DNA of 64,000 bases, from positions 4,644-68,643 of the forward strand of contig DATILC010000168.1 in NCBI GenBank assembly GCA_035476855.1, in the 5' to 3' direction. Position numbers and translations under genes: made by a program. Below, piece after piece: positions 32,516 to 55,165 of the stretch (position 1 is the first letter of the stretch; each line of letters begins with the position of its first letter). The notes beneath the pieces were generated by a model. The model was not told the origin of the DNA, did no database searches, and saw only the letters and a program-made list of their open reading frames with translations. This DNA comes from Solimonas sp. (GTDB taxonomy: Bacteria > Pseudomonadota > Gammaproteobacteria > Nevskiales > Nevskiaceae).

Positions 32516-34180
32516 TCAGCCGATGCGATCGAAACGCAGGTTTCGGACGCGATCCATGCTGATCCAGAACCCGGTGACCTTGCCGTCCTTGCGATCGACC
32601 ACGAGCGAGGCGAAGGTCGGCAGCGGCTGTGCCGGGATACTGTGGAAAGTGCCGCAACCGAGAACGTCGGCGGACAGCGGCTCCAGCTCCCAGCGCGCCA
32701 TGCCCACCTCCGGCAGGAAGTCGACGAACAGCTTGCCCTCCCTGAGCACGATCTCCAGCTCCGCCCCGAACCCGGCAAGGCGGTAACGCCCGGCCAGTGC
32801 GGGCGCCAGCTCCTCCACCGTCGGCGGTGTGTCCGGGAGGCGCTCGAAGCACTCCCGTTCGCCGGCGATATGCACCTCCAGCATGGCGGGCGGTGTGCTG
32901 CTGTCCGGCAGTGTGCGGATCTCGATCCGGCTCATGGGCCCGTCAGGCAGGGCCAGGCCGTCACCCGCCTTCTGCAGGAGGCCCGCTGGTGCGTTGTAGA
33001 TGGACAGCAGTAACTCCGGGGCTCCGGTCGGAGTCTGCCGGGTCGTGATCGACAGCGGCGTGCGGGACTGCCGGCTGTACCAGCGACCCAGGACCGACGG
33101 GAAGTCCGCAGCCGGGGCCGGCTTTGCCGGAGGCGTCAGGCCTTCGCCTTCGAGCACGGCATCGACCACCTTGAAGGCAAGCGCTGGCGCGGACGCGTCC
33201 ATGCGGTTGGCCATGATCACGATGTCCAGCTCATGTTCCGGCACCGTCAGCATCTGGCATTGCGAGCCGAACGTGGCGCCGGCATGGTGAATCGCCTCGA
33301 TGCCGCGATAGCTGTCGCGCGCGATGCCCAGGCAATAGCCGGCCTGCAGGCCGCTGCGATAGGTCTGGCACTCGAGCATCCGCGTCCAGGTTGCGTCGCT
33401 GCCCAGCTTCTTATGCGGCCCGCGCAGGTGCGCGACCCAGGCCAGCATGTCGTCGATCGTGGAAATCATGCCGCCCGAACCCAGCACTTCGTCGGTCGGA
33501 TAGATGCCGCGGCGCCAACGGCCGTCGGGCAGGGGCATGTGCAGCGTCGCCATGTTCGGCACGATGTCCATGTCGCTGCGCAGCAGTGCGGTGTCGTTCA
33601 TGCCCAGGGGTGCGAAAACACGCCGGGCCATGAACTCCTCCCAGCTCAGACCCGAGACGCGCTCCGTGACCAGGGTCAGCAGGAGATAGCCTGCGTTGCT
33701 GTAGGCCATGCGCGTACCCGGCGCGAAGTTGAGATCGGTGAAGCGCGCCAGGAGCTGCAGCCCTCCCCCTGCCGGCATGTGGCCATAGTTGCCGCGGTTC
33801 AGGAAAAAGGCCGCGAACATCGGATCGCGCAGGCCACCGGTGTGATGCATGAGTTGCAGCAGGGTGGGCTCGCCGGAGATGTTGGTCAGCTCCGGCAGGT
33901 AACTTCGCACCGGCTGGCTGATGTCGAGCTTGCCCTCTTCAGCCAGCAGCATGATGCCGAAACTGCAGAAGTGCTTGGTGGTGGAGCCGATGCGCATGCG
34001 AGTGGCCGGCGTATTGGCCGTGGCATGCTCGATGCTCGACAGCCCGAAGCCGCGGCGATAGATCACCTTGCCCCGATGCGACAGGCCCACGACGAGGCCC
34101 GGTGCGTCACCGCGGTTCCACGGCTTGAACAGCTCATCAAGCTTCTGGATCGTGGTGAGTGCAGCTGCAGTGGTGGTCAT
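32516..34180 (-). CDS. Beta-lactamase-family serine hydrolase 1 (D-aminopeptidase/MlrB-like)
   Basis: GSTTK (SxxK), YSN, HAG, LMHHTGGLRD; long C-terminal extension; no signal peptide. Confidence 0.85.
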   Translation of the reverse strand: MTTTAAALTTIQKLDELFKPWNRGDAPGLVVGLSHRGKVIYRRGFGLSSIEHATANTPATRMRIGSTTKHFCSFGIMLLAEEGKLDISQPVRSYLPELTNISGEPTLLQLMHHTGGLRDPMFAAFFLNRGNYGHMPAGGGLQLLARFTDLNFAPGTRMAYSNAGYLLLTLVTERVSGLSWEEFMARRVFAPLGMNDTALLRSDMDIVPNMATLHMPLPDGRWRRGIYPTDEVLGSGGMISTIDDMLAWVAHLRGPHKKLGSDATWTRMLECQTYRSGLQAGYCLGIARDSYRGIEAIHHAGATFGSQCQMLTVPEHELDIVIMANRMDASAPALAFKVVDAVLEGEGLTPPAKPAPAADFPSVLGRWYSRQSRTPLSITTRQTPTGAPELLLSIYNAPAGLLQKAGDGLALPDGPMSRIEIRTLPDSSTPPAMLEVHIAGERECFERLPDTPPTVEELAPALAGRYRLAGFGAELEIVLREGKLFVDFLPEVGMARWELEPLSADVLGCGTFHSIPAQPLPTFASLVVDRKDGKVTGFWISMDRVRNLRFDRIG

Positions 34181-34437
34181 CGGCGAACGGTTCTCTTGGC
34201 GGCGCGCATGGCTGTCAGTGCGATCGAGTGTGCGTTGCCGCCGGATTTGCGGGCATCCATGAAAACACCGGATTCAGCCGGAGGCGGCTCGACGGGATGC
34301 GCCCCGCCCCATCCGTGGAACGACCGGCAGCTACCCGCCAGCACCTGATGCGGGAGAGTCAAACCCGGTGATTTTGCTGATAGGCGGTGCTGGACCTTGT
34401 TGGTCTACTACGTTCACGAATCCCACGGGCTCATTCC

Positions 34438-35484
34438 ATGAACGTCTCCTCCGTCACCCATTCCAACAACACCACCGTGGTGACGCTGCGCAGTCCCTAC
34501 CTGCTGTTCCTCGGCGAGGCCGACATCGACCAGCGCGCCAAGACCGCCTTCGGCTTGCGCGACTGGGCGCCCGGACGCTGCCTCGGCCAACTGCGGCTGC
34601 CGGCCTGCAATGTCACGCTCGGCCTGCCCGACATGACGCCGGCGGAAGCCGCGGCCAAGGGCGGCGGCTCGCTGGTCGTCGGAGTTGCCCCCAAGGGCGG
34701 GCGCATCGCCGAAAACTGGATTCCGGTGCTGCGCGCAGCGGTTGATGCCGGCCTCGACGTCGTCAGCGGCATGCACGATTCGCTGTCCGACGTTCCCGGC
34801 CTTGCAGCGCTCGCGCAAGCCAGGGGCGTGCGCCTGGTCGACGTGCGCAACCCGCCCCCCGGCCTGCCCACCGGCACCGGCCGCAAGCGCAGCGGCAAGC
34901 GTCTGCTCACGGTCGGCACCGACTGTGCGCTTGGCAAGAAGTACACCGCGCTGGCCATCGCAAACGCGATGCGCGAGCGCGGCTTCAGCGCGGATTTCCG
35001 CGCCACCGGCCAGACCGGCATCATGATTTCCGGCTCCGGGCTGCCGATGGATGCGGTGGTTGCCGACTTCAGCGCGGGTGCTGCCGAGGTGCTCTCGCCG
35101 GACGCCGCAGCTGACCACTGGGACATCGTCGAAGGCCAGGGCTCGCTGTTCCATCCCGCCTACGGCGGCGTCACGCTGGGCCTGCTGCACGGCTCGCAGC
35201 CGGATGCCATCGTGCTTTGCCACGACCCCGCGATCACGCGTATCAAGTCCTTGCCGGACTTCCCCACGCCGAGCCTCGAGGTCGCGGCGCAGGCCTACCT
35301 GCAGGCCGGCGCGCTCACCAATCCCGGCATCCGGCTGGTAGGCGTGAGCCTGATCACCCAGAAAATGGACGAAGCCACCCGCCGGCGCACGCTCGCCGAT
35401 GCCGAGCAACGCCTCGGCGTGCCGGCCTTCGATCCGCTCAGGACGCCGCTGCAGCCCCTGATCGATCGCATGCTCGCGGCATGA
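34438..35484 (+). CDS. dgcN: DUF1611 protein, DgcN-like D-glutamate N-acetyltransferase (copy 1)
   Basis: TVGTDCALGKKYT, FRATGQTGIMI, EGQGSL, HGSQPD; ATGA-coupled to the epimerase gene. Confidence 0.8.
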   Translation: MNVSSVTHSNNTTVVTLRSPYLLFLGEADIDQRAKTAFGLRDWAPGRCLGQLRLPACNVTLGLPDMTPAEAAAKGGGSLVVGVAPKGGRIAENWIPVLRAAVDAGLDVVSGMHDSLSDVPGLAALAQARGVRLVDVRNPPPGLPTGTGRKRSGKRLLTVGTDCALGKKYTALAIANAMRERGFSADFRATGQTGIMISGSGLPMDAVVADFSAGAAEVLSPDAAADHWDIVEGQGSLFHPAYGGVTLGLLHGSQPDAIVLCHDPAITRIKSLPDFPTPSLEVAAQAYLQAGALTNPGIRLVGVSLITQKMDEATRRRTLADAEQRLGVPAFDPLRTPLQPLIDRMLAA

Positions 35485-36641: not shown

Positions 36642-39137
36642 ATGATCAAACTCTGCTCTCGATGCCTCTGGGTCCTGCTCTGGTTGACGTCGCTGGAGCT
36701 CCGGGCCCAGTCCGAGCAGCCACCGCCGGTTGCTGAGGCTGCGCCAGTCGCCGAACCTGCCGGCACGACAGCTGAGGATGAAGACACGCTGCAGTCGCTG
36801 CTGGACGACTTCGACAGCACGCCGCAGGAGGAGGGCGCAGCGCCGGAACCCGCGGATGCTGCCGGCGATACGCCTGCCGAGGCGCCGGTGCAGCAGGACG
36901 TTGCCGCTCCGGCCGCTGCCGAAGAACTTCCCGTCATCCGGCTGCAGGAGAAGCAGGCAGCTGCCCCCGTCCTCAAGGAAGCCGCACCCAGATCGCCCCA
37001 GCTCGAGGAAATCGTGGTGACCGCCACCAAGCGTTCCCAGGTCGCGCGCGACATTCCCAGCAGCATGTCGGTGCAGAGCGGCGAAAAGCTGGAGCAGCTC
37101 GGCATCCGCAAGGTCAAGGACATCTTCACGCTGATCCCCGGCGTCAACCTGCAGGACGAGATCGCCGGCCAGCAGCGCAAGATCTCGGTGCGCGGCGTGG
37201 GGCCGGACACCGGCACCAACCAGACGGTCGGCACGGTGCTGGGCGATGTGCCGATCTCCGATCCCTATGGCGCCACCACCATCGTCGATCCCAACCCCTG
37301 GGACATGCGCACGGTCGAGGTACTCAAGGGACCGCAGGGCTCGCTGTTCGGCGCCACCTCGCTGGCGGGACTGATCCGCTACGTCCCCAACGCGCCCGAG
37401 CTGGAGGTCTGGAAGGGCAAGGCCTTCTACGACTACACCACGGTGGATCGCGGCGGCTCGGCGCCTGCCTTCGGCGGCGCGCTCAATGTGCCGGTGGGCG
37501 ACAGCGTCGCCTTGCGGCTCGCCGGCATCTACCAGAACTCGCCGGGGGTGATCGACAGCGACAACCCCTCGCGCCGGGAAGAGGATGTCGACTCGGCCCA
37601 CAGCTGGAGCGGTCGCGCGATGGCGCTATGGCAGCCAAGCGAAGAGCTCAGCATCAACGCCATGTATTTGAAGGATCGTCGTGTTTCGGACGACATCAAC
37701 ATCGTCACCTTCCCGGAGCCCAGCTATTCGCGCGAGGACGCGCCGCAGGCCTCGCCCTCGGCCAACGGCTTCACCCTGGCCACGCTGGACATCCGCTACG
37801 CCTTCGACTGGGCCACGCTGGCCTCGATCAGCGGCTATCAGGAGAAGAACAGCTACAACGACATCGATACCAGCTATCTGGCGCAACCGATTGCGCAGGC
37901 CGGGGTGAGCTTCCTGCATGCCCAGCGCCAGGTGGATACGCATGGCCTGATGCAGGAGCTGCGGCTGACCTCGCCGGACGACGGCGACCTGACCTGGCTC
38001 GGCGGCGTCTACTTCAGCAGCTTCAGCCAGGCCATCGTGTCGGACCTGTACCTGGAGGGCACCAGCATCCTGGGGCCGCTCGCAGCGCTGCTGCCTCCGC
38101 CGCTGAGCGGGCTCATCTCGGAGAACGGCGTCTCCCTTGCCCGCGCCGGCTACGATCCGCTGGAGGCCAATGAGCTGGCGATCTATGGCGAGGCGAACTA
38201 TGACTTCAGCGACAGCTTGCGCCTGACGCTGGGCAGCCGCCTGTACAAGACGACCGTGGAAGGCACCTTCAAGTCCAGCGGCGCTTCCAGTGGCAACAAC
38301 GGCAAGAACACGGGCACGACCGAAAAGGGCTGGAGCCCCAAGATCGCGATCACCTGGCGCCCCTGGGACGACATCATGTTCTACGGCAACATCTCGCGCG
38401 GCTTCCAGTTCGGCGGCTTCAACCTGCCGACCATTTCGACCGGACAGACCCCGCTGACCTTCGAGTCCAGCAGCCTGTGGAACTATGAAATCGGCGCGCG
38501 CACCGACTGGTTCGATCGCACGCTGCGTCTCGACATCACCGCCTTCTTCCTGGACTGGACCAATCCGCAGGTCAGGCAGGTGGGCCCGGGCGGCCTGAGC
38601 GCCTACGTCGACAACGTCGGCGCCACGCACAACATCGGCGTGGAGGGAACCCTCAGCTGGGCCACGCCGATCGAAGGCCTGATCATCGAACAGACCGGCT
38701 CCTACATCGAGGCGCGCACCAGCGAGCCGTTCCAGGATGTCTCAGGCGAGGAAATCCCCGAAGGCACCCTGATGCCCAGCGCGCCGCGGGTGCAGGCGGT
38801 GACCACGCTCAGCTACAGCCGCCCCTTCGGCCCTTGGCTGACCCAGGCCTCGCTGATCAATTCCTTCCAGGACACGGCGTTCACCAGCATCGACCACAGC
38901 ACCGAGGTCGGCGGCTACAACCTGCTCGGCTTCACCTTCAACCTCACACGCAACGACCTGAGCTGGACTCCGTCGATCACCCTGTCGGTCAACAACATCA
39001 TGAACGAGCAAAAGCTGGCAGCCGGATTCGGCCCCGCGGGCGGCGACGTGGGCCCGCTGGGCCGCATCGTCGCCGATTCCTCCTACGTCTATACCCAGCC
39101 TCGCTCCATCATCCTGCGCGGCGCCATCGAGTTCTGA
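36642..39137 (+). CDS. TonB-dependent receptor 1
   Basis: Signal peptide, EEIVVTATKR TonB box, VEVLKGPQGSLFG plug motif, C-terminal Phe. Confidence 0.93.
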   Translation: MIKLCSRCLWVLLWLTSLELRAQSEQPPPVAEAAPVAEPAGTTAEDEDTLQSLLDDFDSTPQEEGAAPEPADAAGDTPAEAPVQQDVAAPAAAEELPVIRLQEKQAAAPVLKEAAPRSPQLEEIVVTATKRSQVARDIPSSMSVQSGEKLEQLGIRKVKDIFTLIPGVNLQDEIAGQQRKISVRGVGPDTGTNQTVGTVLGDVPISDPYGATTIVDPNPWDMRTVEVLKGPQGSLFGATSLAGLIRYVPNAPELEVWKGKAFYDYTTVDRGGSAPAFGGALNVPVGDSVALRLAGIYQNSPGVIDSDNPSRREEDVDSAHSWSGRAMALWQPSEELSINAMYLKDRRVSDDINIVTFPEPSYSREDAPQASPSANGFTLATLDIRYAFDWATLASISGYQEKNSYNDIDTSYLAQPIAQAGVSFLHAQRQVDTHGLMQELRLTSPDDGDLTWLGGVYFSSFSQAIVSDLYLEGTSILGPLAALLPPPLSGLISENGVSLARAGYDPLEANELAIYGEANYDFSDSLRLTLGSRLYKTTVEGTFKSSGASSGNNGKNTGTTEKGWSPKIAITWRPWDDIMFYGNISRGFQFGGFNLPTISTGQTPLTFESSSLWNYEIGARTDWFDRTLRLDITAFFLDWTNPQVRQVGPGGLSAYVDNVGATHNIGVEGTLSWATPIEGLIIEQTGSYIEARTSEPFQDVSGEEIPEGTLMPSAPRVQAVTTLSYSRPFGPWLTQASLINSFQDTAFTSIDHSTEVGGYNLLGFTFNLTRNDLSWTPSITLSVNNIMNEQKLAAGFGPAGGDVGPLGRIVADSSYVYTQPRSIILRGAIEF

Positions 39138-39139
39138 GC

Positions 39140-40036
39140 ATGGACAACACCCACGAAGCGCCGATGATCGAAGATCGTCACCTCACGGTGGACAAGCACC
39201 TGCTGCACATCCACAGCGGCGGCGTGACCAGCAAGCTTCCGACCATCGTCCTGGAAGCGGGATGCGGCTGCACCCTGCAAACCTGGCATACGATCGAACA
39301 GGCGCTGGGTGCGCAGACGCGCGTTCTCGCTTACGAGCGCGCCGGTGTCGGCAGCAGCGACTGCAAGGTCGACAGCACGAGCGCCGCAGCTGTCGCGCAG
39401 CGCCTGGCGTCGCTGCTGCAGGCCACGCAGACCCCCACGCCGGTGATCCTGGTCGGCCATTCCCTCGGCGGACTGTATTCCCGCTACTTCGCCGCGACCC
39501 GGCCGGAGCAGGTTGCCGGCCTGGTACTGCTCGACGCCTCGCCGGAAGACCTGCCCACCCCCCGCAGCTACTCCTGGAAACCCCGGATCCTGATGTGGCT
39601 GCTGCACGGCCTCGCGAGACTGCGCGTGATCCAGCCACTGGCCGCTCTCCTGAGCAAGCCGGGCACCGATCTCGCAGCACTGAAGCACCATCTGAACACC
39701 ATAGGCCGGTTCCGGCATGTGAAGACTGCCTTGATGGAGATCGGTGCGAAGGCGGACATCCAGGCTGAAGTCGCCAGGCTCTCACTGGCAGCACAGTTGC
39801 CGGTCCTCGCCGTGAGCGCCGGAGCCATGCCACCCGGCGCGCCCCAGGAGCAACACGACGCGGTTCAACGCAGCCATGACAAGCTGGCCGCTGCCGGGGC
39901 GCCGCCCTACAGCCGCCACTTCCGCGTCGAAGGCGCCACCCACATGTCGCTGCTGACGGATCCGCAGTACGCCGCGGTGGTGGCGAAGCAGGTGCTGGAT
40001 TTCGCAAGGCAGATCCAGCAAAAGACTGGCGCCTGA
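39140..40036 (+). CDS. Alpha/beta hydrolase 1
   Basis: YERAGVGSS, GHSLGG nucleophile elbow, C-terminal His (ATHMSL). Confidence 0.88.
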   Translation: MDNTHEAPMIEDRHLTVDKHLLHIHSGGVTSKLPTIVLEAGCGCTLQTWHTIEQALGAQTRVLAYERAGVGSSDCKVDSTSAAAVAQRLASLLQATQTPTPVILVGHSLGGLYSRYFAATRPEQVAGLVLLDASPEDLPTPRSYSWKPRILMWLLHGLARLRVIQPLAALLSKPGTDLAALKHHLNTIGRFRHVKTALMEIGAKADIQAEVARLSLAAQLPVLAVSAGAMPPGAPQEQHDAVQRSHDKLAAAGAPPYSRHFRVEGATHMSLLTDPQYAAVVAKQVLDFARQIQQKTGA

Positions 40037-41223: not shown

Positions 41224-41347
41224 TTGATCTCAGGATAGCAATCCCCCGACCCTCGGGCCATCAGGTGAAAACACCTGTTTTCCACTCCCTCAACTCAGCT
41301 GGACAGCGCCACCCGCAGCGATCGGCCCTGCCCCGCATCAGGGCCCT

Positions 41348-45607: not shown

Positions 45608-47064
45608 AAATCTTCAGCGCCTTTCTCGCTACCGAAACCAACACTTCGGGCGTGGTGCCCACCGGCAGCGTCGACTTTGAGAACTGCGGGTTCTTCCGCG
45701 GCGATGCCAGCCTCCGCCATCCCACCGGCTTCGGCGCCTCGCATGTGCTGCTCAAGCGCCTGGCCGCCGAAGACGGACACACGATCGTCGAGAGCCTGAC
45801 TGCCCATGCCCAGCCTTCCGGCATCACGCAGCGGTCTGTCTACGAGCAGTATCGCGACTGGATACTTGAAGACCTGAAAGCGGCGATGCCGGTGCAGGGC
45901 GTGATCCTGATCATGCACGGTGCCATGGTTGCCGAGGGCTACGACGATTGCGAAGGCGACACGATCGGCAAGGTTCGCGAGCTGGTCGGCCCCGGTGTGC
46001 CCATCGGCGTGGAACTCGACCTGCACTGCCATTTCAGCGAGCAGATGCACAGCCAGGCCGATGTGATCATCGCCTACAAGGAATACCCGCATACCGACAC
46101 GATGGAGCGGCTGGAAGAACTCTATCGCCTGGTCGTGCGGCAGGCCGGGGGCCGGATCAGGCCGGTGACGGCCGTGCACGACCTGCGCATGATGGGCATC
46201 TGGCACACCACGAAGGAACCCATGATCTCCTTCGTGCAGCGCATGAAGTCCCATGAAGGTCGCAATGGCATCCTGTCGGTGTCGCTGGGCCATGGCTTTC
46301 CCTGGGGCGATACCCCGGACACCGGCGCGAAGCTCTGGGTGGTCGCCGACGGCGATCTGGCCGGCGCGCAGGCGCTGGCCGACCAGCTGGGGCGCGAACT
46401 CTGGGCGCTGCGGCAGCAGATCTGGCAGCCGCCCCTGACCATCAAGGAAACGATCGAGGCAGTCCGGCGCACGGCGGCAGGCCCCGTCGTGCTGGCCGAT
46501 GTCGCGGACAACCCGGGTGGTGGCGCCATGAGCGACAGCACCTTCATCCTGCGCGCCCTGCTGGATGCCGGCATCCACGATGCCGCACTCGGCATCTACT
46601 GGGACCAGGGAGCCGTCAGCCTGTGCCAGAGCGCCGGCGTCGGCGCGCGACTCAATCTGCGCATCGGCGGCAAATGCGGCCCGCTCTCCGGAGACCCGGT
46701 CGACCTGCCGGTCACGGTCAAGGCCATCGTGCCCGATCACTTCAACCACGGACTCGGCTTCCGCTGGCCCTTCGGCACCGGGGTCTGGGTGCAGACCGAC
46801 CAGGGCATGGATATCGCCCTGTGCAGTTCGCGCGGCCAGGTCCTGTCCCGCGAGGCCTTCGAGAATCTCGGCATCCCGCTCGCGGGCAGGAGGGTCATCG
46901 TGGTCAAGTCCACGCAGCATTTCCACGCCGCGTTCGCGCCGATCGCGAAGCAGGTTCTCTACGTCGGCGCCCCCGGCGCGCTCACGCAGAACTTCGCCGA
47001 GATGAGCTTCAGCAAGCGCGACAACAACTTCTGGCCGCGCGTTGCCGATCCCTACGGCGGTTGA
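45604..47064 (+). CDS. M81 metallopeptidase, MlrC-like
   Basis: TETN, HGAM, LDLH, YKEYPHTD metal-ligand pattern, ADVADNPGGG, VVKSTQHF. Confidence 0.88.
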   Translation: MKIFSAFLATETNTSGVVPTGSVDFENCGFFRGDASLRHPTGFGASHVLLKRLAAEDGHTIVESLTAHAQPSGITQRSVYEQYRDWILEDLKAAMPVQGVILIMHGAMVAEGYDDCEGDTIGKVRELVGPGVPIGVELDLHCHFSEQMHSQADVIIAYKEYPHTDTMERLEELYRLVVRQAGGRIRPVTAVHDLRMMGIWHTTKEPMISFVQRMKSHEGRNGILSVSLGHGFPWGDTPDTGAKLWVVADGDLAGAQALADQLGRELWALRQQIWQPPLTIKETIEAVRRTAAGPVVLADVADNPGGGAMSDSTFILRALLDAGIHDAALGIYWDQGAVSLCQSAGVGARLNLRIGGKCGPLSGDPVDLPVTVKAIVPDHFNHGLGFRWPFGTGVWVQTDQGMDIALCSSRGQVLSREAFENLGIPLAGRRVIVVKSTQHFHAAFAPIAKQVLYVGAPGALTQNFAEMSFSKRDNNFWPRVADPYGG

Positions 47065-47335: not shown

Positions 47336-48547
47336 ATGCTGCCCCTGGACTTCGACAGCATCCTGGCCGCGCGGCGGCGCCTGCAGGGGCAGATCAGCCA
47401 CACGCCGCTGACGCGATCGCGCGTGCTGTCGGACATGACCCAGGCCAATGTCTGGCTGAAGTTCGAGAACTTCCAGTTCACCGCCAGCTTCAAGGAGCGC
47501 GGCGCCCTCAACAAGCTGCTCTCCCTGGACGCAGAACAACGCCAGGCCGGCGTGGTGGCGATGTCGGCCGGCAACCACGCGCAAGGTGTCGCCTACCATG
47601 CAACGCGGCTCGGCATCCGCAGCCTGATCGTGATGCCGCGCGGCACACCCTTCGTCAAGGTGCGCAATACGCAGCAACTCGGCGCCGAGGTGATCCTCTG
47701 GGGCGACTCGCTGGCCGAGGCCGCGAGCCACATGGAGGAGGAGTACGTCGGCCGGCACGGCATGACGCTGGTGCATCCCTACGACGATCCGGAAATCATC
47801 GCCGGCCAGGGCACCGTGGCACTCGAGATGCTGGAGGCCGAGCGTAGCCTCGACACCATCGTCGTCCCGGTCGGCGGCGGCGGACTGATTGGTGGCGTCG
47901 CGCTCGCTGCACAGGGCTGGCCGGGCGTGCGGGTGGTCGGCGTGGAGTCGGCGCTCTACCCCTGCGCGCAGGCCGCCCTCAAGGGCGATCCCTCGATGGT
48001 GACCGGAGGCCAGACCATTGCCGAGGGCATCGCGGTGCGCAGCATCGGCCGCCTGCCGCTGGAGATCCTGCGTGCGCTGAACCCCCTGCTGCTCAGCGTG
48101 GACGAGCCCGCCATCGAGCGCGCCATCGCGCTGCTCGCGAGCATCGAGAAGGTGATCGTCGAAGGCGCCGGCGCCGCCGGTCTCGCCGCACTGCTGGGCC
48201 ACGGCGCGGAGTTCCACGGGCGCAACATCGGCATCGTCCTCAGCGGCGGCAACATCGATACGCGCCTGCTGGCTTCCGTCCTGATGCGCCAGTTGGTGCA
48301 GGAATCGCGGCTGGTGGCCCTGTCGATCGAGGTGGAAGACCGGCCCGGATTTCTGTCGCGGGTGGCCGGCTGCATCGGCGAAGCCGGCGGCAACATCGTC
48401 CAGGTCGAGCATGATCGTCTGCACGGCGGCATCCATGCGAAAAGTGCCTCGCTGCAGGTACAGCTCGAGGCCCAGGACGAGGCCCATGTTGCGAGGATCG
48501 TCCAGGCCCTCGAAACCGCGGGTTTCACGGCCCGGGCGATCCGGTAG
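47336..48547 (+). CDS. Threonine/serine ammonia-lyase with a C-terminal ACT domain
   Basis: SFKERGA (PLP Lys), SAGNHAQG, VGGGGLIGG, LSGGNID, EDRPG ACT motif. Confidence 0.92.
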   Translation: MLPLDFDSILAARRRLQGQISHTPLTRSRVLSDMTQANVWLKFENFQFTASFKERGALNKLLSLDAEQRQAGVVAMSAGNHAQGVAYHATRLGIRSLIVMPRGTPFVKVRNTQQLGAEVILWGDSLAEAASHMEEEYVGRHGMTLVHPYDDPEIIAGQGTVALEMLEAERSLDTIVVPVGGGGLIGGVALAAQGWPGVRVVGVESALYPCAQAALKGDPSMVTGGQTIAEGIAVRSIGRLPLEILRALNPLLLSVDEPAIERAIALLASIEKVIVEGAGAAGLAALLGHGAEFHGRNIGIVLSGGNIDTRLLASVLMRQLVQESRLVALSIEVEDRPGFLSRVAGCIGEAGGNIVQVEHDRLHGGIHAKSASLQVQLEAQDEAHVARIVQALETAGFTARAIR

Positions 48548-48644
48548 CAAGAGGTCCCCCGGTATTTCCAGTGTTTTCACGAGTCGCCGCCGGTCGCGGC
48601 GGCTGCTTTACTGACAACTTCGCAGCTCCACCCAGAGATCTTTC

Positions 48645-49715
48645 ATGGGCACCCCGAATTCCACCGTAGACCCCGCCGCTGCAGGCGCCGCCCAGCCGCT
48701 GGCCACCACCATCAGCCTGCGACAGCCCTACCTGCTGTTCCTCGGCGACGCCAGCCACTCCTCGCGCGCCAAGACCGCGCTGGGCATCCGCGACTGGGCG
48801 CCGGAAACCTGCGCCGCGCAGCTGCGCCTGCCCGGCTGCGCCGTGGACCTCGGCCTGCCGGACCTGACGCCGGCGCAGTCCGCGCAGCAGGGGATCGGCT
48901 CGCTGCTGATCGGCATCGCGCCGATCGGCGGCCAGTTCAGCGAAGGCTGGCTGCCGACGCTGTTCGCCGCCGTCGAAGCCGGCCTCGACATCGTCAGCGG
49001 CCTGCACGCCAAGCTCGGCGATGTGCCCGGCCTGGCCGCGGCGGCCAAGGCCCGCGGCGTGCGCCTGATCGACGTGCGCTGCCCGCCGCCGGGCCTGCCG
49101 GTCGGCTCCGGCCGCAAGCGCGGCGGCAAGCGTCTGCTCACCGTCGGCACCGACTGCGCCCTTGGCAAGAAGTACACGGCACTGGCACTGGCCAAGGCGC
49201 TGCGCGCCCAGGGCGTGGCAGCGGATTTCCGCGCCACCGGGCAGACCGGCATCATGATCGCCGGCACCGGCCTGCCGCTGGATGCGGTCATTTCCGATTT
49301 CACCGCCGGTGCCGCCGAGTGCCTGTCGCCGGATGCGGCGGCAGATCACTGGGACATCGTCGAGGGCCAGGGCTCGCTGTATCACCCGGCCTATGCCGGC
49401 GTGACGCTGGGCCTGGTGCACGGCTCGCAGCCGGACGCGATGGTGCTCTGCCACGAGCCGGGCCGTGACCATATCTGGGGCTATCCCGACTACCCCACAC
49501 CCTCGCTGAAGACCGCCATCGAGGACTACGAACGCGCGGCGCGGCTGACCAATCCGAAGGCGCGCGTCGTCGGCATCGCCTTCAACACCTCGATGCTCGA
49601 CGACGCGGCGCGCACGAAGCTGCTGGCGGAGACCGAGCGCGAGCTGGGCCTGCCCTGCTTCGATCCGATCAAGAGCCCGCTCGACGCCGTGGTCCGCAGT
49701 ATCCTCGCCCTCTGA
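48645..49715 (+). CDS. dgcN: DUF1611 protein, DgcN-like (copy 2)
   Basis: Same motifs as 34438-35484 (PYLLFLGD, GKKYT, EGQGSL). Confidence 0.8.
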   Translation: MGTPNSTVDPAAAGAAQPLATTISLRQPYLLFLGDASHSSRAKTALGIRDWAPETCAAQLRLPGCAVDLGLPDLTPAQSAQQGIGSLLIGIAPIGGQFSEGWLPTLFAAVEAGLDIVSGLHAKLGDVPGLAAAAKARGVRLIDVRCPPPGLPVGSGRKRGGKRLLTVGTDCALGKKYTALALAKALRAQGVAADFRATGQTGIMIAGTGLPLDAVISDFTAGAAECLSPDAAADHWDIVEGQGSLYHPAYAGVTLGLVHGSQPDAMVLCHEPGRDHIWGYPDYPTPSLKTAIEDYERAARLTNPKARVVGIAFNTSMLDDAARTKLLAETERELGLPCFDPIKSPLDAVVRSILAL

Positions 49716-49722: not shown

Positions 49723-50709
49723 ATGACCCGCAAGCTCAGCGTACATACCGAAACCTGGCCGGCCGTAGCGCCCTTCCGCATCACCGGGCGCAGCGTGAAC
49801 GAATTCGACACCCTCGTTGCCGCGATCGGCGAAGGCAACCGGGCGGGCCAAGGCGAAGGCATGGCCATCCACTACCTCGGCGAGACCGAGGAGTCGATGC
49901 TGGCGCAGATCGAATCGGCGCGCGCCGCGATCGAGGCTGGCGCCGACCGCGAGGCGCTGCGCTCGCTGCTGCCGCCCGGCAGCGCCCGCAATACGCTGGA
50001 TGCCGCACTCTGGGATCTCGAGTCCCGCCTCAGCGGCAAGTCCGCATGGAAGCTTGCCGGCGTCGAAGCCCGCACCGTGGAAACGGTCTGCACCATCGGC
50101 ATCGAGGCCGAGCCTGAGGCCATGGGCGAAAAGGCGGCGCGGGTGAAGCATCCGCTGCTGAAGATCAAGCTCGACGGCGACCGTCCGGTGGAACGCGTGG
50201 AGGCCATCCGCCGCCGCCGCCCCGATGCCCGCCTGGTGGTCGACGCCAACCAGGGGTGGAGCTTCGAACAGCTGCGCGAGATCGCCGGGCCGATGCAGCG
50301 CCTCGGCGTGCTCTTCATCGAGCAGCCGCTGCGCCGTGGCCAGGACGAGGCCCTGGAAGGCTACAAGGCGCCGCTGCCGCTCGCCGCCGACGAGTCCTGC
50401 CAGCATCTGGGAGAACTGGAGCAGGCCACGCGCCGCTACCAGATGATCAACATCAAGCTCGACAAGTGCGGCGGCCTGACCGAGGGCCTGCTGCTGGCAC
50501 GCGCGGCGCGGGAGCGCGGCCTCGGCCTGATGGTCGGCTGCATGGGCGGCAGCTCGCTGGCGATGGCGCCGGCGCATGTGCTGGCCCAGCTCTGCGACTA
50601 CGTCGATATCGACGGACCCCTGCTGCTGAAGAACGACCGCATCGGCGGCTTCAACTATGCAGCCGGCCAGGTCAGCCTGCCGGCCACCGGCTTCTGCTGG
50701 GGCAGCTGA
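49723..50709 (+). CDS. dgcA: Dipeptide epimerase / DgcA-like racemase (copy 2)
   Basis: KIK, DANQG, EQP, DES, NIKLDKCGG, DIDG. Confidence 0.8.
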   Translation: MTRKLSVHTETWPAVAPFRITGRSVNEFDTLVAAIGEGNRAGQGEGMAIHYLGETEESMLAQIESARAAIEAGADREALRSLLPPGSARNTLDAALWDLESRLSGKSAWKLAGVEARTVETVCTIGIEAEPEAMGEKAARVKHPLLKIKLDGDRPVERVEAIRRRRPDARLVVDANQGWSFEQLREIAGPMQRLGVLFIEQPLRRGQDEALEGYKAPLPLAADESCQHLGELEQATRRYQMINIKLDKCGGLTEGLLLARAARERGLGLMVGCMGGSSLAMAPAHVLAQLCDYVDIDGPLLLKNDRIGGFNYAAGQVSLPATGFCWGS

Positions 50710-50725
50710 GAGCGCAGGAGCGACG

Positions 50726-52363
50726 ATGGAACTGACCACCGACTACCGCCAGAAGCTCGACGCGCTGCTGCAGCCCTGGAACCGCAGCGATGCCCCGGGC
50801 CTCATCATCGGCGTGGCCCATCGCGGCCGCGCGATCTACCGCCGCGGCTTCGGCCTGGCCAGCGTCCAGCAGGGGCAGGCCAACACGCCGCTGACGCGCA
50901 TGCGCATCGGCTCCACCAGCAAGCACTTCGCCTGTCTGTCGGCCCTGCTGCTGGCAGAGGACGGACAGCTGGACATCGACGCAGCGCTGCGCCGCTATCT
51001 CCCGGAGCTGGACGGCATCAGCGGCGAGCCGACCCTGCGCGAGTGCATGCAGCACGTCAGCGGTCTGCGCGACCCCAATGACCTGCTGCTGCTCATGGTC
51101 AACAAGAGCTGGAACAACATCCCGGCGCCCGGCCACCTGCTGCAGCTGGGCCGCCGCCTGGACAGCCTCAACTTCCCGCGTGGCGAGCGGATGATCTACA
51201 ACAACCAGGGCTACCACCTGCTGACGCGCGTGATCGAGCGCATCAGCGGCATGGCCTATGGCGACTTCCTGCGCGAACGCATCCTCAGCCCCATGCGCAT
51301 GCACGACACCGCGCTGCTGCCCAGCGACTACACGCTGCTGCCGGGCCTGGCCGACCTGCATCTGAAGGACGGTGATGGCTGGCGCCGCGGCCTGTTCCCC
51401 AGCGAGGAACTGCTGGGCGAAGGCGGCATGGTCTCCACCATCGACGACATGCTGACCTGGCTCGTACATCTGCGCAGCCCCGACAAGACCGTCGGCAATG
51501 CATCGAGCTGGGAGCAGATGCTGCGCAAGCCGCGCTACAGCAGCGGCGCCGAGGGCGACTATTGCCTGGGCCTGGTGCGCGAATGCTGGCGCGGCATCGA
51601 GATCGTCCACCACGCCGGCGGAGTCATCGGCGGCAACAGCCAGATGCTCACCGTGCCTGCGCATGAACTCGACGTGATCGTGCTGTGCAATCGCAACGAC
51701 GCTTCCTCGCCGGTGCTGGCCAACCGCATCGTCGAGACGCTGCTGGGCGAGGCGCTGGAACCCGTCGCTGCTCCGGCAGCGCGGCCGGATCTGCTCGGCC
51801 GCTGGTATGCGCCGGACTCACGTCGCCTGATCGGCCTGCTGGAAACACCCACGCTCGGCGAGGCAACACCCGCGCTGGCGCTGAGCGTCCACGGCCAGGC
51901 GCTGGGCCTGGTCACGGAACGCGACGGGCAATGGGTCATGAGCTGCTCGGCGCATGGGCGCATCGCCGTCACCCTGCCGACCGAAGAGCAGCCAGACTCC
52001 CTGCAGGGCAGCGACAATGGCCATGCCGAAATCTGGCAGCGCCTGCCCGACAGCGGCCCCGCCGTTGAAGCACTGGCGGAAGACCTCGTCGGCCGTTACC
52101 GTGAGACCGAACTCGGCGTGGAGGTCGCGATCGTGCTGATCGACGGTGCACTTCACATTGACCTGCTGCCGGTCTCCGGCCACAGCCGCCTGCGGCTGAC
52201 GCCGTACACAATGGACGTCTGCGGCTTTGTCCACGAGTCCAATGCCTTTGCCACCTACCCGCTCGTCGGCAGCCTCGCCATCGAGCGTCGCGAGGATCGT
52301 GTCACGGGCCTGTGGCTCAACAGCGCGCGCACCCGCAATCTCCGGCTGGAGCGCCATGCCTGA
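50726..52363 (+). CDS. Beta-lactamase-family serine hydrolase 2 (D-aminopeptidase/MlrB-like)
   Basis: GSTSK, YNN, HAGG; paralog of 32516-34180. Confidence 0.85.
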   Translation: MELTTDYRQKLDALLQPWNRSDAPGLIIGVAHRGRAIYRRGFGLASVQQGQANTPLTRMRIGSTSKHFACLSALLLAEDGQLDIDAALRRYLPELDGISGEPTLRECMQHVSGLRDPNDLLLLMVNKSWNNIPAPGHLLQLGRRLDSLNFPRGERMIYNNQGYHLLTRVIERISGMAYGDFLRERILSPMRMHDTALLPSDYTLLPGLADLHLKDGDGWRRGLFPSEELLGEGGMVSTIDDMLTWLVHLRSPDKTVGNASSWEQMLRKPRYSSGAEGDYCLGLVRECWRGIEIVHHAGGVIGGNSQMLTVPAHELDVIVLCNRNDASSPVLANRIVETLLGEALEPVAAPAARPDLLGRWYAPDSRRLIGLLETPTLGEATPALALSVHGQALGLVTERDGQWVMSCSAHGRIAVTLPTEEQPDSLQGSDNGHAEIWQRLPDSGPAVEALAEDLVGRYRETELGVEVAIVLIDGALHIDLLPVSGHSRLRLTPYTMDVCGFVHESNAFATYPLVGSLAIERREDRVTGLWLNSARTRNLRLERHA

Positions 52364-53234
52364 AGGCCCCGATGACTTCGACGCACTGTTCCGGGCCGCC
52401 GGAGTCGATGGCTGGCTGCATGCGCTGGACCTGAGCAGCGGCCGCGAGATCGACCATGGCGCCGATCAGCCGGTGGTGGCCGCCTCGGTGTTCAAGATCC
52501 CGGTGCTGGTCGAACTGTGCCGGCAGGCCGACGCTGGGCAGATCGATCTCGCCGAAGCTGTCCATGTCCCTGCCGAAGACCGCGCCGCGGGCTCCACCGG
52601 CCTGTCGATGGGCCTGGATGCCGCTACGCACAGCTGGCGCGACCTGGCCCTGTCGATGATCGTGGTCAGCGACAACGCCACCACCGATGTCTTGTGCGCA
52701 CGGCTGGGCCTCGACCGCATCAACGCGGCGATGGCTGCGCTAGGCCTGCCGGGGACGCAGCTCGAAGGTGATTGCCGGTACCTGTTCGCACAGATGGCCG
52801 CAGATGCCGGCTGTACGGGCCTGGCCGACTTCCCGCCGAAACCTGATCCGGAACTGCTGGGCCGCCTGCGCGTACTTCAACCCTTGCTCACCAACCGCAC
52901 GACGCCACGCGAAGCCACGCGCCTGCTGGTCGCGATCTGGCGCGACCAGGCCGCCTCGACGGAGAGCTGCGCGTTGATGCGCCGCATCCTCGGCGCGCAG
53001 GTCTGGCCGCATCGCCTCGCGTCCGGCTTCCCCGAGGACGAGATTCGCACGGCCGGCAAGACCGGCACCCTGATCATCGTGCGCAACGAGGCGGGTGTCG
53101 TCAGCTACCCCGACGGCAGCCACTACGCCGTATCGGTCTTCACCCGCAGCCACGAAGTACGCGCGAAGCACCCCGCGCAGGACCGCGCGATCGGCCAGGC
53201 AGCGCGCCTCGCCGTGGACCTGCTGCGGGGCTGA
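52356..53234 (+). CDS. Class A beta-lactamase-fold serine hydrolase lacking Glu166
   Basis: SVFK, SDN and KTG motifs; omega-loop segment TQLEGDCRYLF in place of TRLDRWEPELN. Confidence 0.8.
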   Translation: MPEGPDDFDALFRAAGVDGWLHALDLSSGREIDHGADQPVVAASVFKIPVLVELCRQADAGQIDLAEAVHVPAEDRAAGSTGLSMGLDAATHSWRDLALSMIVVSDNATTDVLCARLGLDRINAAMAALGLPGTQLEGDCRYLFAQMAADAGCTGLADFPPKPDPELLGRLRVLQPLLTNRTTPREATRLLVAIWRDQAASTESCALMRRILGAQVWPHRLASGFPEDEIRTAGKTGTLIIVRNEAGVVSYPDGSHYAVSVFTRSHEVRAKHPAQDRAIGQAARLAVDLLRG

Positions 53235-53270
53235 TCGGCCAGGCCCATCAACAGGCCCTTGCATGTTGCT

Positions 53271-53430
53271 GTGGTGATGCCATCCATGGCGAGACGGCCG
53301 TTCGCCCATTGAACCCCGGCCCATGCTTGGCTTACTTCGGCATGACATTGAGTCATGCCTCAGCCGGGCCAAGCATTCCATGGCCGGGCGTTCGGGCGCC
53401 TCGCGGCCCTTGGCCGCGAAGCAGGCGCCC
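53271..53430. repeat. Structured repeat, copy B, plus trailing bulged hairpin
   Basis: 53271-53390 aligns ungapped to 397-516; trailing stems 53394-53400/53424-53430 and 53401-53408/53412-53419. Confidence 0.85.
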
Positions 53431-53467
53431 TCACCCAGTATTTCCGCAGATAGCCGGTGGTCCGCCG

Positions 53468-55165
53468 ATGGGAGACGATCTGGACATCACGATCCGGATG
53501 CCCCCCATGACCGATGTGCCTACCCCCAGCCTCGCCCAGCAGCTCGACGAACTGTTCAAGCCCTGGAACCGCAGCGACGCCCCCGGCTTCGTCGTCGGTG
53601 TGCGTCACAAGGGCAGCCTGATCCATCGCCGCGGCTTCGGCCTGGCCAGCATCGAACATGCCGCGGCGAACACGCCGCAGACGCGCATGCGCATCGGCTC
53701 CACCAGCAAGCAGTTCACCTGCCTGGCGGTCCTGCTGCTGGAAGAGGAAGGCAAGCTCGACATCGACCAGCCGGTGGGAGATTACCTGCCGGAACTGGCC
53801 GGCAAGGCCAGCGGCGAGCCGACACTGCGCCAGCTGATGCACCACACCGGCGGTATCCGCGATCCGTTCTTTGCGGCCATCGTGCACAACCGCGGCGCCT
53901 GGGGCCACATGCCGGCCGGCGGCAGCCTGCAATTGATGCTGCGCCATGACGGACGCAACTTCGCGCCCGGCACCGACATGATCTACACCAACGCCGGCTA
54001 CACGCTGCTGTCGCTGGTGGTCGGCCGCGTCAGCGGCCTGAACTTCGCCGATTTCCTCTACGAGCGCATCTGCGCGCCGCTGGGGATGCTGGACACCCGC
54101 CTGCTCTCCAGCGACATGGAGATCCTGCCCAACATGGCGACGCTGCACCTGCCGCAGGCCGACGGCGGCTGGCGTCGCGGCATTTATCCCACCGATGACC
54201 TGCTGGGCTCCGGCGGCATCATCTCCACGGTCGACGACATGCTGACCTGGACCGCGCACCTGCTCAGCCCGCAGAAGCGCGTCGGCAGCGCGGCCAGCTG
54301 GCAGAAGATGCTGCAGCCCTTGCGCCTCGCCAATGGCACCGAGGGCAGCTATTGCCTGGGCCTGACGCGCCAGACCTTCCGCGGGCTCGACACCATCCAC
54401 CATGCCGGCGCCACGCTGGGCGCGCAGTGCCAGATGCTGATCGCGCCTGCCGAGGAACTCGAGATCGTCGTCATGGCCAACCGCATGGACGGTTCCGCCC
54501 CGCTGATGGCGCAGAAGATCGTGGAACTGGTGCTCGGCAACCGCCTGCCGCCGCCGACCCCGCCGCCCGCGGCCGATGACCATCCCGGCCTGCTGGGCCG
54601 CTGGTACTCCAGCAGCGCGCGAACGCTGATCGACATCAGCCGCATCAAGGCACTGCCCGACGCACCGGAAGGCATGATGCTCTCCGCCCACGGCTCTCCC
54701 GTCGGCCTGCTTACCGGGCGCGATGGCCGGCTCGGCATCAACAACTCGCCGACCAGCCCGATCGACCTGCTGGCGCCCCCAGCCGGTGAAACCCCCGCCT
54801 CGCTCGACTTCCGCCTGGCCGGCGAGACGCGGAGCTTCGAGCGCCTGCCACAAAAGGGACCGGCCGCCGCCGATCTCGCCGCCGCTTTCTGCGGCCGCTA
54901 CCGCAGCGTCGACTTCGGCCCCGAGATCGAGGTCCTGCTGCAGGACGACAAGCTCTACATCGACTACCAGCCGGCCTGCGGCAAGGCCCTGTGGGAGCTG
55001 CTGCCGCTGAGCGAGGACGTCGTCGCCTGCGGTGCCTTCCACAGCGTCCCCGCGCTGCCGCTGCCGAACAACGCCGTGCTGACGCTGGAGCGCCGTGACA
55101 CCAGGGTCGTCGCCTTCACCCAGGATGCCGACCGCGTGCGCGGCCTGCGCTTCGAGCGCTGCTGA
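53468..55165 (+). CDS. Beta-lactamase-family serine hydrolase 3 (D-aminopeptidase/MlrB-like)
   Basis: GSTSK, YTN, HAGA; close paralog of 32516-34180; start 53468 or 53507. Confidence 0.85.
   Translation: MGDDLDITIRMPPMTDVPTPSLAQQLDELFKPWNRSDAPGFVVGVRHKGSLIHRRGFGLASIEHAAANTPQTRMRIGSTSKQFTCLAVLLLEEEGKLDIDQPVGDYLPELAGKASGEPTLRQLMHHTGGIRDPFFAAIVHNRGAWGHMPAGGSLQLMLRHDGRNFAPGTDMIYTNAGYTLLSLVVGRVSGLNFADFLYERICAPLGMLDTRLLSSDMEILPNMATLHLPQADGGWRRGIYPTDDLLGSGGIISTVDDMLTWTAHLLSPQKRVGSAASWQKMLQPLRLANGTEGSYCLGLTRQTFRGLDTIHHAGATLGAQCQMLIAPAEELEIVVMANRMDGSAPLMAQKIVELVLGNRLPPPTPPPAADDHPGLLGRWYSSSARTLIDISRIKALPDAPEGMMLSAHGSPVGLLTGRDGRLGINNSPTSPIDLLAPPAGETPASLDFRLAGETRSFERLPQKGPAAADLAAAFCGRYRSVDFGPEIEVLLQDDKLYIDYQPACGKALWELLPLSEDVVACGAFHSVPALPLPNNAVLTLERRDTRVVAFTQDADRVRGLRFERC

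Follow-up and report, generated by a model that had tools for sequence, protein, structure and literature searches.

Described systems and the Solimonas locus

The described systems closest to the locus treated here are the D-aminopeptidase (DAP) of Ochrobactrum (Brucella) anthropi, the mlr cluster for microcystin degradation and the DgcN-DgcA pathway of D-glutamate. The locus occupies ~32.5-60 kb of a 64,000-nt stretch of Solimonas sp. DNA (Nevskiaceae; GenBank assembly GCA_035476855.1, contig DATILC010000168.1, forward-strand positions 4,644 to 68,643), which is termed the window. It encodes three DAP-like serine hydrolases (DAP1-3), an M81 zinc metallopeptidase, two DgcN/DgcA-type pairs and two TonB-dependent receptors. 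Probably, it serves the substrate-inducible, TonB-dependent scavenging of small D-amino-acid peptides, D-glutamate above all, with peptidoglycan stem peptides as the likeliest substrate. All parts belong to known families. The ensemble of TonB-dependent DAP-like hydrolases, M81 peptidase and N-acyl-D-Glu racemase (referred to as the cassette) is undescribed as far as found, and no published description of it was retrieved by a full-text literature search, the coverage of which did not include the founding DgcN/DgcA paper. The version in the window is duplicated and extended with DgcN and DauA-like genes.

The DAP of O. anthropi (PDB 1EI5, model NF009622, MEROPS family S12) resembles DAP1-3 in its cytoplasmic location, predicted for the latter, in its length of ~520-550 amino acids (aa) and in its build, a beta-lactamase-fold catalytic domain that is followed by two beta-rich domains. 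The motifs SxxK, YxN and HxG are common to both. Differences are the low identity (27%), the scores of DAP1-3 on the DAP model (151-167 bits, cut-off 443) and the long separate branch of DAP in the tree. Furthermore, DAP occurs singly in the Shinella locus that was examined, whereas three paralogues are found here within a transport-and-catabolism locus. Lip3/Lip7, BogQ, TriF and ClbP also share the S12 fold, the Ser/Lys/Tyr core and the cutting after D-residues, but are secreted or membrane-bound, act in defence or maturation and carry other or no C-terminal domains.

The mlr cluster of sphingomonads (mlrC-mlrA-mlrD-mlrB with mlrE and mlrF) likewise combines an S12 hydrolase of ~540 aa with a cytoplasmic M81 peptidase and an importer of the major facilitator superfamily (MFS), and the zinc ligands of its MlrC are conserved in the M81 peptidase of the window. 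The MlrF amidohydrolase and the MlrE dipeptidase, in contrast, have no counterpart in the Solimonas locus, and the mlr cluster is devoid of DgcN/DgcA and DauA, both of which are represented in the window. As genuine mlr reference, a metagenome contig (L087) was used that was found via an mlrA primer printed in PMC6563193. The primer scan of metagenome contigs gave 10 loci, one of which was a real cluster; the nine others had no M81 or S12 homologue and were dropped. The gene order of the reference is mlrF-mlrE / mlrB / mlrD-mlrA / mlrC. An acyl-CoA ligase and a TonB-dependent receptor are encoded 1.7-3.3 kb beyond its mlrC (13359-17223 of the contig), and the mlr cluster, too, may be served by a TonB receptor.

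The DgcN-DgcA pathway (EC 2.3.1.312 and 5.1.1.25) has its likeness in two adjacent DgcN/DgcA-type pairs of the locus. Here, three of the four scores lie just under the cut-offs of the respective models, and the pairs are situated among peptidases and TonB receptors. A further relative is the breakdown of murein tripeptides in E. coli by MpaA, the L-Ala-D/L-Glu epimerase YcjG and PepD, which involves M14 and M20 peptidases and no TonB-dependent uptake. Both systems handle L-Ala-D-Glu peptides in the cytoplasm, by prediction in the case of the locus, and both contain an enolase-superfamily epimerase or a protein resembling it. The Solimonas locus differs in its use of S12, M81 and M17 enzymes together with TonB receptors, and its match to the epimerase model remains below the cut-off of 343 bits.

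Gene content and kinship of the hydrolases

Genes were called by third-position GC content, and starts were then corrected by alignment and upstream context. The G+C content of the window is ~66%. An earlier reading of this DNA, made by a model from the sequence alone (the sequence-only reading), had confined the locus to 32516..55165; it is larger and consists of two paralogous modules with further genes between them.

Module A
32516..34180, minus: DAP-like S12 serine hydrolase 1 (DAP1), 554 aa, without leader; PF00144 E 8e-59; NF009622 D-aminopeptidase model matched end to end, 156.1 bits (cut-off 443)
34438..35484, plus: DgcN-like D-glutamate N-acetyltransferase, copy 1 (DgcN1); NF041892 449.5 bits (cut-off 480); PF07755/PF17396; PDB 7XRJ 352 bits
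35481..36464, plus: DgcA-like N-acetyl-D-Glu racemase, copy 1 (DgcA1); NF042940 414.7 bits (cut-off 400); start overlaps the DgcN1 stop
36642..39137, plus: TonB-dependent receptor 1; Plug and beta-barrel domains; signal-like N-terminus
39140..40036, plus: alpha/beta-hydrolase 1 (ABH1), predicted cytoplasmic; PF00561/PF12697
40093..41223, minus: LuxR-type (GerE helix-turn-helix) regulator 1; PF00196 at residues 320-373 only

Between the modules
41348..42826, minus: M17 leucyl aminopeptidase; PF00883 E 4e-110; NF002077 433 bits (cut-off 471)
42904..44046, minus: DauA-like D-amino-acid dehydrogenase dependent on flavin adenine dinucleotide (FAD); PF01266; PDB 3NYC/6P9D (D-arginine dehydrogenase DauA) 351 bits, E 7.5e-104
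44156..45607, plus: MFS_2 (GPH-like) inner-membrane transporter; PF13347 E 2e-52; TIGR00792 101.7 bits (cut-off 231); stop overlaps the M81 start
45604..47064, plus: M81 zinc metallopeptidase, 486 aa, predicted cytoplasmic; PF07364 E 5e-82 (275.9 bits); PF07171 MlrC_C E 1e-47 (163.1 bits)
47336..48547, plus: threonine ammonia-lyase with ACT domain; NF005600 550.6 bits (cut-off 496)

Module B
48645..49715, plus: DgcN-like, copy 2 (DgcN2); NF041892 460.4 bits (cut-off 480)
49723..50709, plus: DgcA-like, copy 2 (DgcA2); NF042940 386.5 bits (cut-off 400)
50726..52363, plus: DAP-like S12 serine hydrolase 2 (DAP2), 545 aa; PF00144 E 2.5e-50; NF009622 151.3 bits, full length
52356..53234, plus: class-A-beta-lactamase-like serine hydrolase, 292 aa, without leader; PF13354 E 4e-57; bla_class_A 90 bits (cut-off 200)
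53507..55165, plus: DAP-like S12 serine hydrolase 3 (DAP3), 552 aa; PF00144 E 4e-62; NF009622 166.8 bits, full length
55176..57662, plus: TonB-dependent receptor 2; Plug and beta-barrel domains; signal-like N-terminus
57662..58522, plus: alpha/beta-hydrolase 2 (ABH2); PF00561 E 5e-20
58519..58905, plus: RidA-family enamine/imine deaminase; PF01042; TIGR00004 111.5 bits (cut-off 106)
58909..59949, minus: LuxR-type regulator 2; PF00196; paralogue of regulator 1

The paralogues of the two modules are 66% (DgcN), 45% (DgcA), 51% (TonB receptors), 40% (alpha/beta-hydrolases) and 44% (LuxR-type regulators) identical. Start and stop codons overlap at DgcN1/DgcA1, MFS/M81, DAP2/class-A-like hydrolase and ABH2/RidA, which indicates an operon structure. 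For both DgcN and both DgcA copies, the NCBIfam equivalog models are the top hits and match over the full length. The sequence-only reading is amended in the number of DgcN/DgcA pairs, which is two instead of one. PMC10845958 and PMC11747546 both mention the DgcN-DgcA pathway of D-Glu. Residues 8-376 of the FAD enzyme align with residues 10-379 of 3NYC, and by sequence it is closely related to DauA, a dehydrogenase that acts in the catabolism of D-arginine and, more broadly, of D-amino acids. RidA and threonine ammonia-lyase score above their NCBIfam cut-offs.

The three paralogous SxxK hydrolases with shared C-terminal extensions (PF00144), which the sequence-only reading had pointed out, are present. 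Their longest open reading frames measure 554, 568 and 618 aa, and their lengths after start correction are 554, 545 and 552 aa. The mutual identity is 47-57% along the full length, the C-terminal ~200 aa included (DAP1 and DAP2, 47%; DAP1 and DAP3, 57%), and among 28 family members no exchange is seen in SxxK (S66/K69), YxN (Y160/N162) or HxG (H299/G301). As read from the sequences, the N-termini of DAP1-3 have no hydrophobic leader, unlike those of both TonB receptors and of genuine MlrB, and a cytoplasmic location is therefore likely. Beyond DAP1-3, the 4.7-Mb assembly has no full-length DAP-like gene. The nearest relatives of DAP1 are found in Solimonas, Stenotrophobium, Fontimonas, Nevskia and Hydrocarboniphaga, the best being 86% identical (Solimonas sp. 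K1W22B-7), which places the DNA in the gammaproteobacterial order Nevskiales.

An AlphaFold (AF2) model of DAP1 (predicted local distance difference test, 88.6; predicted template-modelling (TM) score, 0.87) is all-beta at residues 365-553. In a Foldseek search with this model, the top match was the Ochrobactrum DAP structure 1EI5 (E 2e-30, TM 0.74/0.78, 570 columns), the sole listed fold match with TM > 0.7 on both normalisations. The runner-up among the solved structures, by sequence as well as by fold, was the DL-peptidase Lip3 (9SN1) with TM 0.56/0.48. The model suggests that DAP1-3 share the three-domain build of D-aminopeptidase, namely a catalytic domain and two beta domains. At the sequence level, a Shinella plasmid protein with 684.4 bits on NF009622 served as genuine DAP reference, and the BLASTP alignment with it spans residues 40-553. 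The match of the window hydrolases to NF009622 covers positions 18-518 of the 518 profile positions; none of the three reaches the equivalog cut-off. Pfam DAP_B was detected weakly on the C-terminal part of one of the three proteins (E 0.033) and gave nothing for the other two. The DAP kinship of the C-terminal extensions is thus shown through NCBIfam, BLASTP and the fold search, not through Pfam DAP_B.

The sequence-only reading had termed these hydrolases mlrB/mlrF-like. With regard to mlrF, the label is wrong, MlrF being an amidohydrolase-family protein. It is described as a D-aminoacylase with a gene of 1,461 bp (PMC4520899), the mlrF gene of the reference contig matches the amidohydrolase family NF006560, and no MlrF-type amidohydrolase (~487 aa) was seen in the locus by Pfam scans. 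The kinship with MlrB does not extend beyond the catalytic domain. BLASTP aligned genuine MlrB over 350 residues of this N-terminal domain only (29% identity), the hhalign profile comparison aligned only columns 23-361, and the highest identity of MlrB to any member of the window family is 28%. The catalytic motifs of MlrB (S77/K80, Y171/N173, H307) are matched by S66/K69, Y160/N162 and H299, a correspondence that is superfamily-wide and non-diagnostic. In a quick, unrooted S12 tree (81 rows, with outgroups), the window proteins are located in tight Nevskiales clades within a well-populated family. Long branches lead to MlrB (2.8 changes per column), true DAP (3.8) and a Phyllobacterium protein (1.9), which lump with one outgroup, the outgroup being non-monophyletic. 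MlrB and true DAP are far from the window family in this tree; their sister relations are unreadable.

Four genes of the locus encode proteins of the beta-lactamase fold (PF00144 three times, PF13354 once), which would be compatible with beta-lactam resistance or a penicillin-binding function. This explanation is very improbable, as none of the four proteins has a leader peptide and the context is catabolic. An assignment as beta-lactamases was rejected on scores of 36-69 bits on class C models (cut-offs 415-900) and 90 bits on the class A model (cut-off 200), together with the missing leaders. The class-A-like protein, encoded between DAP2 and DAP3 with a start/stop overlap, carries the motifs SVFK, SDN and KTG. 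Its best solved match is 4EWF (83 bits), and homologues were detected in four of 60 long related loci (see below), all of the Nevskiales or Salinisphaerales type.

The one M81 peptidase reported by the sequence-only reading is borne out, with both Pfam domains (PF07364, PF07171) above the gathering score, and its gene is the only M81 gene found in the assembly. Its best solved match is MlrC (7YLQ) with 273 bits, followed by 3IUU with 121 bits. The zinc ligands of MlrC, E39, D167, H169 and H191 (PMC9982164, PMC4810221), correspond to E11, D139, H141 and H163 in the window protein, so that all four are conserved. Like H133 and D332 (MlrC numbering), they are kept in the window protein and, without exception, in the 61 further M81 proteins of the alignment. 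The general base of MlrC is reported to be E70, and substrate binding is ascribed to W59, F67, F96, Q468, S485 and R492 (PMC9982164). In the window protein, the latter six positions are occupied by F31, R38, H68, H439, A456 and M467, respectively.

The label mlrC-like is weakened by an identity of 35% to genuine MlrC and by a score of 294.9 bits on the MlrC model NF041767 (cut-off 999), compared to 1176.9 bits for the MlrC of the reference contig. In a quick M81 tree (62 rows, unrooted, with a long MlrC branch), MlrC is placed outside a 52-row clade that holds the window protein, with a support of 98 in the Shimodaira-Hasegawa-like approximate likelihood ratio test (SH-aLRT). When MlrC is constrained to join the 22-row clade of the window protein, the log-likelihood drops by 39 units, and the approximately unbiased (AU) test rejects this arrangement (p-AU 0.016), with the reservation that the group was picked post hoc from the tree and that the MlrC branch is long. 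In the phylogenies with MlrB, DAP and MlrC, the window proteins hence group away from all three.

Microcystins contain D-Glu and D-Ala. The sequence-only reading had proposed a related or ancestral pathway for linear D-peptides, with ring opening done by another enzyme or not needed; in its Mlr-related form, such a pathway would act on linearised microcystin, nodularin or similar cyanopeptides. MlrC as the best solved match of the M81 peptidase speaks for this proposal, as does the size of MlrB, which also measures ~540 aa and is best modelled on DAP (PMC11070527). On the other side stand the distance of the M81 peptidase from the MlrC clade, its differing substrate residues, and the S12 alignment with MlrB, which is restricted to the catalytic domain; MlrB is moreover periplasmic with a signal peptide, and DAP1-3 have none. 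No MlrA-like gene was matched by either Pfam PF02517 or a genuine MlrA query anywhere in the 4.7-Mb assembly, in agreement with the sequence-only reading, which had noted the absence of such a gene from the window. The absence of MlrA from the genome is likely but not proven, because the assembly is 93.8% complete in 422 contigs. A POT-type MlrD (PTR2), which the genuine MlrD represents by its match to TIGR00924, was not found either, the transporter of the window being MFS_2/GPH-like. The locus is only remotely related to the mlr system and does not belong to it. As to the term ancestral, both trees are unrooted and their Mlr branches long. The part of the sequence-only reading that stands is a probable D-peptide catabolic pathway in which DgcN/DgcA would act on D-Glu, alongside which DauA-like, RidA and M17 proteins, two TonB receptors and an MFS transporter are encoded; a specific kinship with Mlr is not supported.

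Recurrence of the gene set in other genomes

To describe the genomic neighborhood of the hydrolase family, one genome per species was scanned (185,579 species genomes), which yielded 404 stretches. The best 80 of these, representing 75 distinct loci, were analysed with 10-kb flanks, and neighbours were counted in the 60 loci of at least 15 kb by tblastn with the window proteins (E ≤ 1e-10, query coverage ≥ 50%). Typically, a TonB receptor (49 of 60 loci), an M81 peptidase (45) and a DgcA-like protein (35) are encoded nearby. Less frequent are DauA-like (21), MFS_2 (16), alpha/beta-hydrolase (13), RidA (13), DgcN (12) and LuxR-type regulator genes (12), and the class-A-like hydrolase (4), threonine ammonia-lyase (3) and M17 (1) are rare. 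M81 is found beside the hydrolase in 19 of 24 genus labels, 7 of 10 families and 5 of 8 orders. The clustering of DAP-like genes and M81 is not due to chance, because all full-length DAP-like genes of the assembly, three in number, and its single M81 gene are packed into 23 kb and the pairing recurs elsewhere.

The genes follow one another closely in these loci. In Roseateles (Paucibacter) toxinivorans DSM 16998 (L034), the order is DAP-MFS_1-DAP-M81-DgcA-like-receptor, accompanied by an extracytoplasmic function (ECF) sigma/FecR pair and a DauA-like gene. The species of Burkholderia, Paraburkholderia, Ralstonia and Pandoraea show the order ExbD-MFS_1-DgcA-like-DAP, with M81 and a histidine kinase on the opposite strand, and a receptor-DAP pair. 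The racemases of these Burkholderiales reach 365-421 bits on the DgcA model and 231-293 bits on the L-Ala-D/L-Glu epimerase model.

These neighborhoods bear on the microcystin proposal in both directions. The MlrB and MlrC superfamilies are linked in the window and in 45 of the 60 related loci, and the cassette occurs in R. toxinivorans, a species with reported microcystin degradation in the absence of mlr genes (PMC8068134). The cassette is, however, equally common in soil Burkholderiales without known degrader status. Taken with the sequence comparisons above, a pathway for linearised microcystins and similar cyanopeptides is considered quite unlikely for the Solimonas locus.

A recycling of the cell's own murein peptides, analogous to the MpaA/YcjG/PepD route of E. 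coli, would fit the hydrolases, all of which appear cytoplasmic by sequence, and the match of the DgcA-like proteins of the window to the L-Ala-D/L-Glu epimerase model (255-270 bits, cut-off 343). Recycling would not account for two dedicated TonB receptors that have their own regulators and are part of operons, nor for the duplication of the modules. A TonB receptor also accompanies the family in most related loci, as counted above, with ExbD alongside in Burkholderia and Ralstonia, and a family found in ~400 stretches of the scanned species genomes is patchy for a housekeeping function. The chance that the locus serves recycling is accordingly rated as small.

On plasmids, M81 was found in 646 records, with none of the 40 listed called MlrC, and DAP1 matches were found in 841 records, 33 of them over at least 80% of the length. 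M81 is far commoner than the cassette. Other M81 neighborhoods on plasmids also point to D-amino acids. In Ensifer (L097), an M55 peptidase, a 'D,D-dipeptide ABC transporter permease' and an FAD oxidoreductase are encoded near M81, and in Roseomonas (L095) and Octadecabacter (L096) an amidohydrolase, CobW and a DauA-like gene (54% identical). The latter M81-amidohydrolase-CobW setting with its DauA-like oxidoreductase has TRAP (tripartite ATP-independent periplasmic) or ABC (ATP-binding cassette) transport, and the amidohydrolase next to M81 is reminiscent of mlrF at the mlr cluster.

A possible route for D-amino-acid peptides

In microcystin, the Ala and Glu residues at the bonds cut by MlrB and MlrC are D-Ala and D-isoGlu. 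MlrB cuts the Ala-X bond of linearised microcystin, and MlrC removes the N-terminal Adda by a cut between Adda and Glu, leaving the Glu-headed hexapeptide intact (PMC4810221). Because of these two specificities, the S12 hydrolases are proposed to cut after a D-residue and the M81 peptidase before one.

Scavenging by the locus could then proceed as follows. The two paralogous TonB-dependent receptors would carry the peptide through the outer membrane, and the MFS transporter, whose gene appears translationally coupled to that of M81, would deliver it to the cytoplasm. There, by analogy with the Adda-Glu cut of MlrC, the M81 peptidase would cut the bond before a D-residue and expose it at the N-terminus, and the three DAP-type hydrolases, by analogy with DAP and MlrB, would remove D-residues or cut after them. 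The M17 aminopeptidase would take off L-residues, a stereochemistry complementary to that of M81 and S12. DgcN would acetylate the free D-Glu, and DgcA would then convert the product to N-acetyl-L-Glu by racemisation. Other D-amino acids would be oxidised by the DauA-like dehydrogenase, the imine being cleared by RidA, and Thr/Ser would be handled via threonine ammonia-lyase. The two LuxR-type regulators would govern the two modules.

The peptidoglycan stem peptide is the most abundant D-Glu peptide in nature. The stem tetrapeptide L-Ala-gamma-D-Glu-mDAP-D-Ala (mDAP, meso-diaminopimelate) has the layout X-D-isoGlu-Y-D-Ala, as does the microcystin tetrapeptide, a substrate of MlrC. Because of this shared layout and its abundance, the stem peptide is ranked first, and peptidoglycan stem peptides released by other bacteria would be the likeliest substrate.

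The receptors and regulators have some features of their own. In both TonB receptors (36642-37050 and 55176-55560, plus strand), the signal-like N-terminus is followed by ~100 acidic residues rich in Pro, Ala and Glu. This linker precedes the plug domain, at the place where signalling receptors normally carry an STN domain. Both regulators (40093-41223 and 58909-59949, minus strand) have the GerE/LuxR helix-turn-helix only at the extreme C-terminus, and their N-terminal ~290-320 aa match no Pfam family; this part may be a ligand sensor. The sequence GTGAAAACAC (at most one mismatch) occurs in four copies in the window, compared to 1.18 expected, and one of 100 shuffles reaches four. Three copies are intergenic, at 34259-34268, 41265-41274 and 48571-48580, upstream of DgcN1, LuxR-type regulator 1 and DgcN2, respectively; the fourth (33612-33621) is located inside DAP1. 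The copy at 41265 is part of a near-palindrome. GTGAAAACAC is a candidate operator for the paralogous LuxR-type regulators.

Several observations weigh against the scavenging of D-amino-acid peptides, or against stem peptides as its substrate. Every step of the route is inferred from family membership and gene context. The general base E70 of MlrC is T41 in the window protein and variable across the family, in a part of the alignment that is of low confidence. Both DgcN copies (449.5 and 460.4 bits, cut-off 480) and the second DgcA copy (386.5 bits, cut-off 400) stay below their thresholds, with only the first DgcA copy above (414.7 bits), and the DgcA-like gene of Burkholderiales is usually found without DgcN within 10 kb. 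No AmpG-, NagZ-, AmpD-, LdcA-, Mpl- or MpaA-type genes were seen in the window. An AmpG-like muropeptide permease was sought among the MFS proteins of the cassettes and not found; their best matches, all below cut-off, are D-galactonate-transporter or GPH subfamilies, which are not known as permeases for peptides or muropeptides. Stem peptides would not account for the alpha/beta-hydrolases, the class-A-like hydrolase and threonine ammonia-lyase. The best family of the TonB receptors is a siderophore-receptor subfamily, again below cut-off. Finally, the related loci are not independent, with several per genome or contig and many from sister species.

Some of these observations would fit the catabolism or processing of imported non-ribosomal D-peptides, i.e. 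Pseudomonas-type cyclic lipopeptides or peptide xenosiderophores, in which the alpha/beta-hydrolases may open ester rings and the S12 enzymes may act as DL-peptidases. Viscosin-type lipopeptides contain D-Glu, D-allo-Thr and D-Ser, and threonine ammonia-lyase would suit such Thr/Ser-rich substrates. An alpha/beta-hydrolase gene follows each TonB receptor gene, the siderophore-receptor subfamily is the best hidden Markov model of the receptors, and the Roseateles cassette adjoins the ECF sigma/FecR pair typical of cell-surface signalling. Lip3, the second-best solved match by sequence and fold, is a DL-peptidase cutting lipopeptides (PMC12903863). Lip3/Lip7 are, on the other hand, secreted and have KGG as motif III and another C-terminal domain (PMC12903863), whereas the window proteins have HAG and DAP-type C-terminal domains. 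The receptor scores do not reach the cut-off, and the alpha/beta-hydrolases (13/60) and threonine ammonia-lyase (3/60) are confined to Nevskiales-type loci and not part of the core. In the intergenic regions of the locus, no match of at least 12 of 19 bases to a Fur box consensus was detected, which makes for a weak test. Overall, a dedication to lipopeptides or xenosiderophores is judged unlikely, and the scavenging of small D-amino-acid peptides is retained as the probable function.

The remainder of the window, outside the locus, consists of housekeeping genes. An SLT-domain lytic transglycosylase (20422-21792, minus strand), 11 kb upstream of the locus, is probably unrelated housekeeping as well. 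The only low-GC stretch of the window (24311-26218, plus strand; 0.56 compared to ~0.66) encodes a 635-aa OLD-like protein with an AAA_15/AAA_21 ATPase and an OLD-type TOPRIM domain. With a tRNA gene at a distance of ~4 kb (20202-20275), this region may be a small defence island.

Peptides with D-amino acids, from cell walls and non-ribosomal products, make up a large pool of organic nitrogen that is broken down slowly. Their uptake and dismantling in Gram-negative bacteria are poorly mapped, and the Solimonas locus provides a concrete, testable parts list. If the proposed division of labour is true, with M81 acting before and S12 after the D-residue, it would be the first physiological role for a large M81 clade and also the first role for an S12 family whose annotation does not go beyond 'serine hydrolase'. 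The mlr enzymes are thereby put into context as divergent members of families whose usual job is probably D-peptide catabolism. A more far-reaching version is distinctly doubtful: the cassette would be a widespread, general system for feeding on D-peptides, mlrB and mlrC would have been recruited from the same stock, and in bacteria such as R. toxinivorans the cassette would finish microcystins, nodularins and other cyanopeptides independently of mlr. For mlr-negative microcystin degraders, the cassette is a candidate gene set.

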